Sequence record: OR544954
DNA from: Escherichia phage vB_EcoM_EP32a
Length of the DNA: 64,000 nucleotides
Strand: one strand, 5' to 3'
Part shown: positions 10,812 through 16,613 of the stretch, piece after piece
Position numbering within the stretch: the first letter of the stretch is position 1
Layout of the letters: each line of letters starts with the position of its first letter
Made by a program: the position numbers and the translations under genes
The notes under the pieces: generated by a model
Databases searched by the model: none
What the model was told of the DNA's origin: nothing
The model's input: the letters and a program-made list of their open reading frames with translations, nothing else

Positions 10812-11414
10812 ATGCGAAACCAAAATAATGATATTGACTCAATGTTCGAAGAGTTCCGAAATAAGGTAAATCCACCTACGTCTTTAGTTGATTCATTACG
10901 ATATGTTGCAACTGGACGTAAATGGTACTGGTCGTCTTCTTATGAGACTACTGAGAAAACGGCCAGCCATAGCAGAAAATCTTTATTAGCCCCAGGTATT
11001 ATGATTCATGATATCGGAGCTATTGCTAAACTAGTTGCAGACCATGATATTAGATTCACTGATTTCGTTGCTCCTACGTGGTCTGTTTGTTGTTTAAACA
11101 CTGAATGGGAATATATCAGCGAACGCTCTAAAGATTATTATGGTTTTAGAGACAAGCTTTTAAGGTCTAACATGTTTTATATTGATACAGAAGTTCTGGT
11201 CAATAATAAAAAATACTACTTCACTTTAATCATCGATTCTGAAACTATGTATGAAGGCAAGCCTTTGCTTAAGAGAGTTGATGCTTTAAGTGCTATTGAT
11301 GCGCTTTATGAAACTATGGTTGTTAGTCCTAATTTCACTAACAATTTAATCCTTGAGCAATTTATTATGGAATGTAGAGAATATGTCAAAGCCAACCCTA
11401 TACATGCCAAGTAA
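10812..11414 (+). CDS. hypothetical protein, C-terminal EQFIMECRE motif
   Basis: 200-aa ORF; ATG after AAGGAG. Confidence 0.55.
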   Translation: MRNQNNDIDSMFEEFRNKVNPPTSLVDSLRYVATGRKWYWSSSYETTEKTASHSRKSLLAPGIMIHDIGAIAKLVADHDIRFTDFVAPTWSVCCLNTEWEYISERSKDYYGFRDKLLRSNMFYIDTEVLVNNKKYYFTLIIDSETMYEGKPLLKRVDALSAIDALYETMVVSPNFTNNLILEQFIMECREYVKANPIHAK

Positions 11415-11778
11415 GCCCTGGGCGTATGAATACAAGCGTAAATTAATCCCAAATGAAGTACTATTTGGCCCTATTTTAGCTTTAGCATTTTTAATCTTTA
11501 TGATTATAGGAGCTGTTTTAGATTCTAGTGAAGTTATATCGTCTGATGCAGCATTTTCATTAATGTTCGTCGCACCACTTATTGTACCGTTTTTATTAAT
11601 GCCTATTAATTGGGTAGGATATTGGCACCAAGGCCGTCATCACAGAGCCCGATTAAGAGAATGGAAAGTTCAGTGCGCAAAAGCCCAAGCTCAGTATGAT
11701 GAAGCTGTTAAAAAGTATGAATATGAAGAAGCTATGGAATTCGTTAAGGAAATAAGATGCAAAAGCCTCAACTCTTAA
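11383..11778 (+). CDS. small membrane protein
   Basis: Hydrophobic segments ILALAFLIFMIIGAVL and MFVAPLIVPFLLMPI; start overlaps upstream ECRE motif. Confidence 0.5.
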   Translation: MSKPTLYMPSKPWAYEYKRKLIPNEVLFGPILALAFLIFMIIGAVLDSSEVISSDAAFSLMFVAPLIVPFLLMPINWVGYWHQGRHHRARLREWKVQCAKAQAQYDEAVKKYEYEEAMEFVKEIRCKSLNS

Positions 11779-12116
11779 CCGTATGGCCTTCTCTTGGTGA
11801 GAACATTCTAATTTTTATTATGAGTATTGGCATGGGATTTGCCTTTGGATTAGTTGGATTTCTTATTGACGGCGTTGTGTTAGGATTTATAGGGAACACT
11901 GGTGGATTCACAGACCAATGGCAGGACTTACGGTACACCCAAGCCTTTGCATCCATCGCATCATTTTGTACTGTAGTCTATTTTTACTACGATTTTATAA
12001 ACCACAACAAGAAAAATAAAAAGGTTTACGCTTCTCAAATGATTAGTTATAATGAACTCCTAGCTAGACGTGAAAATGAAACAATCGAAAACTTTATTAA
12101 GGAATGTAGAAAATGA
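11757..12116 (+). CDS. small membrane protein, C-terminal ENFIKECRK motif
   Basis: TM segments; conserved C-terminal motif. Confidence 0.5.
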   Translation: MQKPQLLTVWPSLGENILIFIMSIGMGFAFGLVGFLIDGVVLGFIGNTGGFTDQWQDLRYTQAFASIASFCTVVYFYYDFINHNKKNKKVYASQMISYNELLARRENETIENFIKECRK

Positions 12117-12418
12117 GTAAGATTATTGAAATTAAAGTACCAGAGTTTAATGATGCCAAATCCGCTTCAGATGCAATTTATAAACTTCTGAATCAAGCTG
12201 AACGTATCGAAGAAGAAGCAACAAAGATCGCAGACCAATATGCCGTATCATTTTCTGTAGGTGATTATGGTAGCGGTCGTACTTATTATCCTAAGGGTGA
12301 AATCGTATCCCAGTGGATGAAAGATGAAATTGAAAATAATGGCGGCGATGTTAAGCGTGAAGGTAATGGATACGTTATTACTGAAGGTGCTTGGGTTTCG
12401 TCTTCTGCGTTGTGCTAA
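12113..12418 (+). CDS. small protein, C-terminal GAWVSSSALC (paralog 1 of 3)
   Basis: ATGA-coupled ORF; shares C-terminal GWVxSSxxC with the next two ORFs. Confidence 0.5.
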   Translation: MSKIIEIKVPEFNDAKSASDAIYKLLNQAERIEEEATKIADQYAVSFSVGDYGSGRTYYPKGEIVSQWMKDEIENNGGDVKREGNGYVITEGAWVSSSALC

Positions 12419-12427
12419 GGAATCATT

Positions 12428-12700
12428 ATGTCTAAAGAACAAACCGAACTGGCTGAAGCTGTAGCAAAAATCTATGCAGCTATTGAGGCTGCCAAAGAAA
12501 TTGCTGATAAACAAAACACAACATTCAACTTGTACCCAGCTTATGGTATGGGTGGAACCTATCATTCACCCGGACATCTTAAAGCCGATCTTGAACGTTG
12601 TACAAAAAACGGCTATGCTGAATGGGCTGACGTTTACCAATACGACTACAACCTGAGCCTCGAAACTGGTGGTTGGGTCGCATCTTCTCACACTTGCTAA
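12428..12700 (+). CDS. small protein, C-terminal GGWVASSHTC (paralog 2 of 3)
   Basis: ORF after AAGGAA SD. Confidence 0.5.
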   Translation: MSKEQTELAEAVAKIYAAIEAAKEIADKQNTTFNLYPAYGMGGTYHSPGHLKADLERCTKNGYAEWADVYQYDYNLSLETGGWVASSHTC

Positions 12701-12709
12701 GGAAACAAT

Positions 12710-12907
12710 ATGTCTCGTGAATTAGATTGTGCTGTACGTACGGCAGTAGCTGCTCTGGAAAACCTGTTCCAAATTGCAACAGAAGAACGCGAAGAAGTTA
12801 CATTATGGATTGAAGATAACGCAGGTCTGAATCTCCAGGACGCGATCTCATTATCCCACAATAGTATCACTGTTCAAGGCTGGGTATCATCTAGTTATTC
12901 TTGCTAA
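12710..12907 (+). CDS. small protein, C-terminal QGWVSSSYSC (paralog 3 of 3)
   Basis: ORF after AAGGAAA SD. Confidence 0.5.
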   Translation: MSRELDCAVRTAVAALENLFQIATEEREEVTLWIEDNAGLNLQDAISLSHNSITVQGWVSSSYSC

Positions 12908-12913
12908 AACAGT

Positions 12914-12948
12914 TTACAACAAGATAGGGCTATGTTATAGTAGTCCTA
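12914..12948 (+). promoter_or_regulatory. early promoter cassette (GTTTAC ... TGTTATAGT) with palindrome
   Basis: agtttacaacaagatagggctatgttatagtagtcctatcaaaacaaatggag. Confidence 0.5.
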
Positions 12949-12969
12949 TCAAAACAAATGGAGTCCACA

Positions 12970-13209
12970 ATGATTTATTACGAAAGTATCGGAACCAAAG
13001 TGGTTGGCAAAACCATTACTCGTGAAAAGTTTGCAAAGATATTCGATATGCGTTATAAAAAATCTGAACACAAAGGCATCCGATTCGAAGATGCGCACTG
13101 TACAATTTGCCCTTATAATGAAGACATAAACGGTACAATCGTTCCATTGGTAGAAGCTTCACATGATGACCTCTGGGATGAATATAATATCGCATGTCGT
13201 GAAATTTAA
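12970..13209 (+). CDS. hypothetical protein
   Basis: ATG after the conserved leader caaatGGAG. Confidence 0.45.
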   Translation: MIYYESIGTKVVGKTITREKFAKIFDMRYKKSEHKGIRFEDAHCTICPYNEDINGTIVPLVEASHDDLWDEYNIACREI

Positions 13210-13237: not shown

Positions 13238-14194
13238 ATGATGTTAGTTATTGGTTCTCGTGCACTTCACTATCACGGTCTTATTGATTCTAGCGCTATC
13301 AAAAATAGTGATTGGGACTTTATTGCGGACCAAGGTTCTTGGAATGCATTCAAAAATCAAATGATGGGTGTATATGTCCACCAAGATAACCCTGATGTCC
13401 AAGTTTTCAAATGCTTCCATAATGGTCGCGAAACTCATTTTGAAGCATATATTGTTCCGGCAATCACTAATGTCCGTGAATTAGTCGGTGAACTCACTCC
13501 TGAAGATTTCACATCTTCTTATGACCTTTTAAAATACGCCAAGAAAAATTTGACTAAAGACCGTTTGAACGGGTTTTACTGGGCAACTCCTGAGATATGT
13601 CTTGCAATTAAGATGTCTCATCGTTTCAAGAAAAATAATCCATTCTTTTTAAAGACTATGAACCATATTCAGTATCTTCGTGGTAAAGGTGTTACACTGA
13701 ACGATGAACTTACTGAAATTATGCTGAAACGCCAAAAAGAAACTTTGAACTATGCTCACCCTGTTCTTGACACTTCTAAAAGTGCGTTCTTTAAAGATGA
13801 CATCTATACATATGACCATGATACTATTCACGAAGCCATTGCACTAACAGACCGTCCGGCTTATATGTTTTACATGAAAGATGGTTCTGAAGTCATGACC
13901 TCACGCGAGAAGTTCGAATCATTACCGGAAATGGTCAAATTGGCCGGTGTATATGAAGAATCATGTGTACTAGCATTAGAACGTTCTCAGATTCCTAACG
14001 ACTTTAAAATCCATCCACGTGATAGTTTTATGATGGCCCTTGAAAAGGTCTGTACATCAATCACATCAGGATGGTTCCGTGAGTTCGCTTGGGAAAATTA
14101 TAGCAAAGTAGTAAGTATGTACCAAAGCTTAGGACACGACGATTACGTCAAGCGTTTCAAACAAAACTTTCATATGGTAAAACCTTTCAAATAA
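13238..14194 (+). CDS. hypothetical protein, possible nucleotidyltransferase fold
   Basis: 318-aa ORF; N-terminal IGSRAL...SDWDFIAD loosely fits the G-S...D-x-D NTase motif with atypical spacing. Confidence 0.5.
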   Translation: MMLVIGSRALHYHGLIDSSAIKNSDWDFIADQGSWNAFKNQMMGVYVHQDNPDVQVFKCFHNGRETHFEAYIVPAITNVRELVGELTPEDFTSSYDLLKYAKKNLTKDRLNGFYWATPEICLAIKMSHRFKKNNPFFLKTMNHIQYLRGKGVTLNDELTEIMLKRQKETLNYAHPVLDTSKSAFFKDDIYTYDHDTIHEAIALTDRPAYMFYMKDGSEVMTSREKFESLPEMVKLAGVYEESCVLALERSQIPNDFKIHPRDSFMMALEKVCTSITSGWFREFAWENYSKVVSMYQSLGHDDYVKRFKQNFHMVKPFK

Positions 14195-15932: not shown

Positions 15933-16165
15933 GTATAGCAATTTACATTAAATCAGAATCATGTGATAGTTATCTGTACACATACGATAAAGATGTGTCA
16001 GAAGAAAAAATCAAAGACGACCTTAATACGGATCTTGATATGTTCTGTCCTATTGCAGATTACAAACTTGCGGTCTCTAATAGTGAAAGTCCATCTAAAG
16101 AAACGCGCATTGAAGAATTTATGTCCGAATTAATGGCCAAATCATGGGACCGAGATGATGAGTAA
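15929..16165 (+). CDS. hypothetical protein
   Basis: ATGA-coupled 78-aa ORF. Confidence 0.45.
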   Translation: MSIAIYIKSESCDSYLYTYDKDVSEEKIKDDLNTDLDMFCPIADYKLAVSNSESPSKETRIEEFMSELMAKSWDRDDE

Positions 16166-16613
16166 GAAAAATAAAGTGAAAGAACTATCAGCCGGTATTA
16201 TTTTCCTTACCGAAGATAAAGAATTATTCATGGGGCGTGTAACTGGTTCTCGTCCTAAAGGTTCTTTAGCTCATCGCTGGGATATTCCTAAAGGACGTGT
16301 CGAGCCCGGTGAATCTCCTATTGAAGCCGCTATTCGCGAATGCGAAGAAGAAACTGGGTTTACACAATATGACCCTGCCTTCCTGAAAGACCTAGGTGAA
16401 CATCATTACTCAGACAATAAGAATATTCATCTGTTCCTATATACCATCCCTGTAGAGCACGAGCAATTCAGAAACAGTGCTTGTAATTCCTATCATACAT
16501 TCCCAGACGGACGACAGATTCCTGAATTTGATGCGTTCGCTTTAATTAAACCTTCTCAATGGGAATATGTAATGGGCAAATCATTATATAAGGTGCTCAC
16601 TACCCTCCTATAA
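16155..16613 (+). CDS. nudE: Nudix hydrolase (NudE / e.1-like)
   Basis: Nudix box GRVEPGESPIEAAIRECEEETGF; immediately upstream of lysozyme as in T4. Confidence 0.8.
   Translation: MMSKKNKVKELSAGIIFLTEDKELFMGRVTGSRPKGSLAHRWDIPKGRVEPGESPIEAAIRECEEETGFTQYDPAFLKDLGEHHYSDNKNIHLFLYTIPVEHEQFRNSACNSYHTFPDGRQIPEFDAFALIKPSQWEYVMGKSLYKVLTTLL

Follow-up and report, generated by a model that had tools for sequence, protein, structure and literature searches.

Three consecutive small genes of Escherichia phage vB_EcoM_EP32a encode proteins that share a strictly C-terminal, cysteine-ending tail; they lie at 12113-12907, on the plus strand, of a stretch of 64,000 nucleotides (nt) from sequence record OR544954, which we call the window. 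The window is that of a Mosigvirus (RB69-like, T4-type) coliphage, to which vB_EcoM_SA79RD is 98.9% identical across 3.5 kb, and the triplet occupies the non-essential 'e.x' block, with e.3 on one side and e.2 on the other. We found that the three genes are real, that they belong to an existing family of small proteins whose free Cys terminus is constrained, and that this family is linked to the gene of an enzyme with a nucleotidyltransferase (NTase) fold and signature. Judged by its genomic contexts, the small family is almost obligately paired with this one predicted nucleotidyltransferase, a pairing that suggests a two-part system widespread among phages. Because the small genes precede the NTase gene and carry a nearly invariant, nucleophile-rich free C-terminal tail, we propose that they function with the enzyme via that tail; more precisely, that the small proteins are cognate partners of the enzyme and engage it through the tail, a reading to which we give a probability of roughly one half. 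The genes were already catalogued as hypothetical proteins, and no paper in the literature searched mentions these open reading frames (ORFs), DUF7275, DUF7277 or the pairing; the entries of PHROGs 899, 4882 and 2141 and of Pfam DUF7277 and DUF7275 record neither the tail motif nor the pairing. According to the libraries and literature searched, three points are new: that a Cys-tailed family can be defined, that its terminus is strictly free, and that it is reciprocally linked to a nucleotidyltransferase of putatively MenT-like fold across unrelated phage lineages.

A small-protein family with a free cysteine terminus

The sequence-only reading of the window had described three coupled ORFs of 101, 90 and 65 amino acids (aa) with shared C-termini, and they are present as described. 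The ATG of copy 1 overlaps the stop codon of e.3 (ATGA), copies 2 and 3 start 9 nt past the preceding stop with AAGGA ahead of each, and the three proteins end in ...EGAWVSSSALC, ...TGGWVASSHTC and ...VQGWVSSSYSC, respectively. In a six-frame translation of the window, the pattern W..SS..C followed by a stop was found at three sites, all of them in the triplet, against a mean of 0.02 in 200 shuffles. The 30-nt stretches that code for the motif are 67-75% identical between copies and differ in synonymous codons (TCG/GCA/TCA, TCT/AGT), and the comparison with the JS98 orthologues indicates purifying selection, with ratios of nonsynonymous to synonymous substitution rates (dN/dS) of 0.14, 0.25 and 0.32 for copies 1, 2 and 3. 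The tail motif is therefore kept at the protein level and is not a DNA repeat, which the sequence-only reading had named as the finding that would overturn it. That the shared C-termini are an artefact, of chance ORFs or of an in-frame repeated DNA element, can practically be dismissed: there is indeed a 30-nt direct-repeat family at the three ends, yet its low identity, the codon differences, the selection and the excess over shuffled sequence all stand against this origin, as do the hundreds of family clusters in public data and the confidently predicted fold described below.

Members of the family share a common layout, in which an N-terminal helix leading to IAD is followed by a strand, the segment (D/A)YGxG(R/G)TYYP, an acidic W/Y-rich linker and the terminal G-x-W-(V/L/M)-(S/A/P)-S-S-x-x-C-COOH. 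Copies 1 and 2 carry the helix with IAD, the strand and the YGxG motif, copy 3 has the helix and strand only, and all three end in the strictly C-terminal W-x-(S/A/P)-S-S-x-x-C. An exhaustive profile search of public data, a check that the sequence-only reading had proposed, gave 805 clusters at 50% identity, 173 of them with E <= 1e-10; nearly all matches are 67-175 aa long, and the alignment runs to the final residue. Among 196 members, 185 end in Cys, which is the sole Cys of the protein in 114; W is found at position -7 in 185, Ser at -4 in 188 and Ser at -3 in 184, while the nearly invariant YGMGGTYYP motif is present in 178. The median isoelectric point of the same set is 4.5, so that the family is acidic. 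The end of the domain coincides with the C-terminus of the protein in 184 of the 196, and N-terminal extensions of up to 95 aa occur nonetheless. As far as these alignments go, extension is tolerated at the N-terminus and not at the C-terminus, and the free Cys terminus appears to be constrained. The spacing between the serines and the cysteine differs by subfamily (SSxxC versus SSC). The conserved C-terminal element that the sequence-only reading had put forward is thus borne out.

Structure prediction, also suggested at that stage, gave a confident AlphaFold2 model of copy 1 (predicted local distance difference test, pLDDT, 92), in which the W-V-S of the tail forms a beta-strand inside the fold. 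This predicted alpha/beta fold has no match in the PDB; the sequence profile of the small family returned coiled-coil noise only when compared with the PDB, and the small proteins had no match above noise in Pfam, NCBIfam or PADLOC. Membership of the window proteins in PHROG 899 and PHROG 4882 is clear, and both entries are marked 'unknown function'. We also considered a ubiquitin-like or ThiS-MoaD sulfur carrier and set it aside, as the small proteins do not combine a beta-grasp fold with a C-terminal Gly-Gly.

To relate the three copies we used a family profile free of window sequences and of sequences of the copy-3 type. Copies 1 and 2 matched it with E = 2e-33 and 8e-23 over their full length, and with E = 2e-32 and 8e-20 once the last 10 residues had been cut off, so the N-terminal parts of these two copies are not unrelated, which corrects the sequence-only reading, where they were said to diverge. 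Copy 3 matched with E = 1e-5 with its tail and with 0.02, which is not significant, when the tail was removed. Nevertheless, when a profile of copy-3 orthologues was compared with the main family, hhalign aligned 63 columns (probability 87%, E = 4e-6), in which helix, strand and tail match up and the central segment is missing. By these profile comparisons, copies 1 and 2 are homologous from end to end and copy 3 is a shortened paralogue.

The same three paralogues are found in identical order in Dhakavirus JS98 and Klebsiella Marfavirus, which carry one or two further members, and orthologues are 54-66% identical while paralogues share about 30%. Since the same genes stand in the same order in other genera, the triplication is older than these genera and not a recent local event; of the local gene duplication suggested earlier, the duplication stands and its local character does not. 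An unannotated 69-aa member is encoded in JS98 (locus L003 2900-3109), ending in ...GFWFSSSMSC. A sub-family typified by JS98 orf126 and resembling 44RR2 ORF063c (L003 3120-3344; L005 2044-2268; L067 2371-2631) carries the motif twice with differing spacing, as an internal DWLNSSC and a terminal IWYPSSC. Neither of these extra JS98 paralogues is present in the window. In the RB69 reference genome, copy 1 (P0002, RB69ORF139c) is annotated as a protein of 71 aa that ends in ...VSQWYEK without the Cys tail, and in phage mar005P1, copy 2 (P0046, 75 aa) ends in ...TNTTTT; both endings look like frameshifts, due either to sequencing error or to a real inactivation of a single paralogue.

Linkage to a predicted nucleotidyltransferase

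The linkage was tested both ways, with loci retrieved via the enzyme and with loci retrieved via a degenerate DNA pattern for YGMGGTYY. Among the 35 viral loci obtained through the enzyme, 31 carry one to three family members on the same strand, 100-2300 nt upstream, with no family member elsewhere within +-10 kb; of the remaining four loci, three do have members, which are divergent but bear related tails. The pattern found 24 loci, 17 of them with enough downstream sequence, and the enzyme lies directly downstream in 16 of these 17. In single-copy cases the gap between small gene and enzyme gene is 16-80 nt, and the number of paralogues per enzyme gene ranges from 1 to 5. Moreover, clustering of the neighbouring ORFs of 58 loci returned the small gene and the enzyme as the sole gene combination common to all lineages; it gave no third universal component, an 83-aa family being present in only 22 of the 58. 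The linkage was also seen in Phapecoctavirus, Pseudomonas Otagovirus, Acinetobacter Lazarusvirus and Stenotrophomonas Menderavirus, with inverted order in the last, and it holds in jumbo phages of 230-390 kb, such as Xanthomonas phage XbC2, where two family members are followed, after about 1 kb, by an enzyme homologue of 59% identity. The only enzyme homologues without a detected partner are shorter and diverge most (Streptomyces, Gordonia, roseophage DSS3_VP1 and Vibrio XZ1), and no fusion of a small protein to the enzyme was found in 316 proteins. The enzyme forms 2,535 clusters at 90% identity; among 50,697 phage records, 733 contain it, from phages of Enterobacteria, Acinetobacter, Aeromonas, Pseudomonas, Xanthomonas and other hosts. 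Bacteria and archaea practically lack it: 185,579 of their genomes yielded a single match, on a 167-kb contig in a metagenomic bin. The role of the small proteins, given as unknown in the sequence-only reading, is narrowed by this near-obligate link to a gene that lies outside the coordinates of that reading.

The 318-aa partner of the window consists of an N-terminal minimal Pol-beta-type nucleotidyltransferase domain (DUF7277) followed by a highly conserved helical domain (DUF7275), and belongs to PHROG 2141. G6 S7 and D25 x D27 are invariant in 30 diverse homologues and in four distant, partner-less ones; E69 is invariant in the 30, the alignment at this point being unreliable in the partner-less set. 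Together these residues make up the Pol-beta nucleotidyltransferase signature (hG[GS]...DxD). The structure model of the enzyme is confident (pLDDT 90), and its nearest solved folds are the MenT1 toxin (score 7.8), TglT/MenT3 (7.0), ANT(2'') (6.8), MenT4 (6.3) and LnuA (6.2), followed by other NTases and by poly(A)/CCA enzymes; such scores from a predicted model set the fold class of the enzyme, not its family membership. A Pfam scan of the protein and 29 homologues returned DUF7275 and DUF7277 only, with no match to DUF1814/AbiEii (PF08843) or to PF10127, and the identification of the enzyme as RlaP was rejected for lack of the latter.

The DUF7275 half is the most conserved part of the enzyme and contains many invariant polar residues. 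K125, S127, H128, K139, H194, D195, H198, E240, E241, E248 and R249 are retained even in partner-less homologues, while R129, R165, Y172, H174, P175, Y190, S277 and R281 are invariant in partner-linked enzymes and lost in partner-less ones; this distribution is suggestive of contacts with the partner, although divergence confounds the comparison. DUF7275 gave a marginal match to the KEN (HEPN-type) domain of RNase L (E = 0.022, profile residues about 70-147) around a conserved L-R-x-x-G, in a region where the His is absent at the HEPN position, and no Pfam signal for its identity was consistent among 30 homologues. We accordingly claim neither an HD-domain nor a HEPN identity for it. The label 'prohead assembly scaffold protein' on the enzyme homologues of Klebsiella phage VAC36 and Escherichia phage vB_EcoM_005 (P0198, H88) looks like an annotation error.

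Flanking elements and neighbouring genes

Table 1. The triplet, the enzyme gene and the elements around them in the window
Feature	Position	Strand	Description
MotA-type middle-promoter-like motif (T4; GCTT-N14-TATAAT)	12030-12053	+	60 nt upstream of copy 1, within the 3' end of e.3
Copy 1	12113-12418	+	101 aa, orthologue of RB69ORF139c; PHROG 899, E = 1.3e-22; helix 15-43, small beta-sheet, DYGSGRTYYP motif, tail GAWVSSSALC-COOH
Copy 2	12428-12700	+	90 aa, orthologue of RB69ORF137c; PHROG 899, E = 5e-19; most widespread 'AYGMGGTY' type, tail GGWVASSHTC-COOH
Copy 3	12710-12907	+	65 aa, orthologue of RB69ORF136c; PHROG 4882, E = 7.7e-37; shortened paralogue without the YGxG segment, tail QGWVSSSYSC-COOH
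Stable 11-bp hairpin	12923-12950	+	directly after the triplet, no U-tract
83-aa ORF	12958-13209	+	orthologue of RB69ORF135c, PHROG 3723; between triplet and enzyme gene
Partner enzyme	13238-14194	+	318 aa, orthologue of RB69ORF134c; 331 nt after copy 3

Ahead of the triplet lies a motif that resembles a middle promoter (Table 1). Such motifs are to be expected in the early/middle region of a T4-like phage with MotA dependence, and the pattern GCTT-N13-15-TATAAT, scored as a consensus match only, occurs 13 times in the window, mostly on the plus strand, against 1.03 expected. In SA79RD the site upstream of copy 1 carries a middle-promoter annotation, and its sigma-70-like score is 10/12. The hairpin that follows copy 3 has a folding energy of -16 kcal/mol (z = -4.5), none of 200 shuffles folds equally well, and it is annotated as a terminator in SA79RD. 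It was not detected by a scan for intrinsic terminators, and a canonical intrinsic terminator after the triplet is unsupported, the hairpin being present and the U-tract absent; it may reduce read-through to the genes that follow, or make the mRNA more stable. A middle-promoter motif before the triplet and a hairpin before the enzyme gene would fit early/middle expression with the small proteins in excess. The 83-aa ORF between the hairpin and the enzyme gene is conserved in T4-like phages only; it stands outside the universal pair and is not among the families common to the lineages.

Upstream of the triplet, the e.4 and e.3 homologues (11353-11778 and 11757-12116) overlap in their reading frames and encode predicted membrane proteins with similar endings, ...MEFVKEIRCKSLNS and ...ENFIKECRK, by which they may be paralogues of each other. 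The 'sulfurtransferase' label that one record (JK42) attaches to e.4 looks like an annotation error. Small membrane-protein genes likewise stand ahead of the module in Xanthomonas phage XbC2 (L004:1878-2305). The 83-aa acidic family that accompanies the module in 22 of 58 loci (MQEFEMSIAIYIKSESCDSY...; about 16000-16251 in the window; L004:2654-2902) is a different one; it occurs in T4-like and jumbo phages, directly upstream of the small genes in XbC2, and may be an accessory third component. In Phapecoctavirus ukendt a homologue of vs.4, an Acb2-type sponge directed against the cyclic-oligonucleotide-based anti-phage signalling system CBASS (L067:2138-2413), is interleaved with the Cys-tailed genes, so that there the module stands among counter-defence genes. 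Near enzyme homologues we also noted Pnk in XbC2 (L004:1-472), a phosphoesterase and Rnl2 in DSS3_VP1 (L072:265-1810) and a tRNA cluster in Gordonia phage (L071:4850-6384), and the window-equivalent locus has tRNA genes about 4.4 kb upstream (L001:5655-5811). The presence of Pnk, Rnl2 and tRNA neighbours in unrelated phages is a weak hint at RNA 3' ends as the target.

Proposed mechanism, alternatives and known systems

In the mechanism that we propose, the small proteins, as ancient paralogues of a phage-specific, acidic alpha/beta family, would act jointly with the downstream enzyme. The folded body would serve as a scaffold and the tail, W-x-(S/A/P)-S-S-x-x-Cys-COOH, as the functional element, which would enter the catalytic or acceptor cleft of the enzyme. 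There the Arg residues that only partner-linked enzymes conserve could grip the free carboxylate of the tail, and the Ser hydroxyls and the Cys thiol would come to lie at the metal or nucleotide site. Docked in this manner, the tail would gate or redirect the enzyme, either as a pseudo-substrate or as a regulator; MenA1-MenT1 offers the closest parallel. We infer the physical binding, the docking of the tail, the regulatory role and the target, and favour a regulator because of the fold analogy, the acidic charge and the gene order. Considering the middle-promoter-like motif and the position in the non-essential 'e.x' block, the module most likely serves host takeover or counter-defence, possibly via tRNA or RNA 3' ends.

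Several observations weigh against this proposal. Antitoxins as a rule evolve fast and are present in one copy; in this module even very distant phages have nearly the same tail, and an enzyme may be accompanied by as many as five paralogues. An invariant tail and several paralogues fit a substrate or an adaptor at least as well as an inhibitor, and docking alone leaves the strictly conserved Cys unexplained. In addition, the loss of residues in partner-less enzymes may just reflect the greater divergence of these proteins, and copy 3 is tied to the family mainly via its tail.

The number of paralogues and the extreme conservation of the tail are what favour the two alternatives in which the small proteins are worked on or used by the enzyme. 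In the first, which we regard as unlikely though deserving of attention, they are its substrates: the NTase/DUF7275 enzyme would covalently modify the tail, and the modified proteins would be the effectors. A Ser hydroxyl would, for instance, be nucleotidylated, possibly with subsequent elimination and attack by the terminal Cys, and one enzyme would have several substrates in the tandem paralogues. Such a scheme would account for the one to five tandem small genes per single enzyme gene and for the strict terminal position of the nucleophiles S, S and C; it is also consistent with the fact that small genes almost never occur without the enzyme while distant enzyme homologues exist without small genes, with the presence of the small-acceptor O-nucleotidyltransferases ANT(2'') and LnuA among the fold neighbours, and with a DUF7275 half rich in invariant polar residues beyond the NTase triad. 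Nevertheless, the confident prediction is of folded small proteins in which W-V-S is a beta-strand of the fold, whereas a core peptide would be flexible; no LanB/LanM/LanD, radical SAM, protease or exporter gene turned up when the neighbourhood was scanned with Pfam and PHROG, and the variation between SSxxC and SSC is awkward for fixed ring chemistry. That the pair is a phage protein-modification system, in which the enzyme chemically rewrites the S-S-x-x-Cys tails of folded carriers, for example by nucleotidylation of Ser with or without elimination and thioether closure, or by forming a nucleotide-linked or metal-binding terminal group, seems to us quite improbable.

In the second, the small proteins are adaptors, whose tail would be a docking handle for the enzyme and whose divergent bodies would recruit it to host targets such as tRNAs or defence proteins. 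One tail on diverged bodies within a single genome, paralogue sets stably kept between genera, and Arg residues of partner-linked enzymes that could clamp a free carboxylate would all suit an adaptor. We consider it very doubtful, however, as the YGMGGTYYP motif in 178 of 196 bodies makes them less diverse than usual target-recognition modules, many phages have a single copy, and the invariant Cys is again left unexplained.

It is similarly improbable that the small proteins are independent of the enzyme, acting in host takeover or anti-defence with the terminal Cys binding a metal or forming a disulfide, and that adjacency reflects co-inheritance in a mobile accessory cassette. The e.x region that houses the locus is indeed plastic and non-essential, the triplet and the enzyme gene of the window have a hairpin and an 83-aa ORF between them, and the Phapecoctavirus cluster adjoins a vs.4 (Acb2-like) gene. 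Even so, adjacency, strand and mostly order are kept across lineages whose neighbourhoods are otherwise unrelated, the reciprocal co-occurrence amounts to 16/17 and about 33/35, and the short gaps in phages with one small gene point to co-translation.

Hundreds of genes in large lytic phages have no assigned function, and in this case an anonymous triplet marks a widespread, phage-restricted two-gene module. Its sharp sequence rules (YGMGGTYYP in the body, and a tail that contains W and S-S and finishes in a free Cys) and its enzyme partner make the system directly testable. If the enzyme acts on tRNA or on the small proteins, the module would represent a new viral route to host takeover or counter-defence and would reveal a new way to control or use a nucleotidyltransferase, by means of a C-terminal cysteine tail; it would also assign a function to DUF7275 and DUF7277 of Pfam and to PHROGs 899, 4882 and 2141. 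Should the modification reading hold, the small proteins would make up a new class of phage effectors that are modified post-translationally, and the tandem paralogues would each serve as a substrate.

The module can be compared with several known systems. Precursor arrays of ribosomally synthesized and post-translationally modified peptides (lanthipeptide, NHLP and Nif11-type) similarly have tandem small genes beside one enzyme gene and a Ser/Cys-rich free C-terminus, but the bodies of the phage proteins are predicted to be folded conserved domains and not leaders, and the segment corresponding to the core is conserved and not variable. In the Pfam and PHROG scans no maturase of such peptides (LanB/C/M/KC/L, LanD, radical SAM), leader protease or exporter was found among the neighbours, the NTase alone being common across lineages. 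RlaP (PF10127) is an RNA-ligase-associated Pol-beta NTase of phages and bacteria that is tied to RNA repair (PMC7824862, PMC12776372). Our enzyme is likewise a phage-borne Pol-beta NTase with some homologues near Pnk, Rnl2 or tRNA genes; it has no PF10127 match, however, and RlaP has no Cys-tailed partner. ANT(2''), LnuA and KNTase differ in showing no sequence similarity to the enzyme and in having no obligate small protein partner, and nothing in a lytic phage points to an antibiotic substrate.

In the type VII toxin-antitoxin system HepT-MntA, the minimal NTase MntA AMPylates its partner HepT on a conserved hydroxyl residue. The phage pair resembles it as a minimal NTase genetically paired with a small protein, and the system is a precedent for the reading of the small proteins as substrates; unlike HepT, a HEPN protein, the small partner has no Rx4-6H motif. 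MenT toxins extend tRNA acceptor (3') ends and thereby poison translation. MenA1, a 68-aa helical antitoxin encoded upstream of MenT1, blocks the active site of that toxin (PMC10435456), and induces auto-phosphorylation of the Ser/Thr in its G-S/T motif (PMC11375011). As in MenA1-MenT1, a small-protein gene stands upstream of a Pol-beta-fold NTase gene in the phages, and the solved structures that come closest in fold to the predicted enzyme structure include MenT1, MenT3 and MenT4, each a best or near-best match. In contrast with MenAT/AbiE (DUF1814), the enzyme has DUF7277 and DUF7275 in place of a DUF1814 match, and with them an extra, highly conserved helical domain. The small proteins, for their part, are unrelated to MenA1, with a predicted alpha/beta fold, an invariant Cys-terminal tail and 1-5 copies, and the module, unlike MenAT, is confined to lytic phages and not to bacterial chromosomes.

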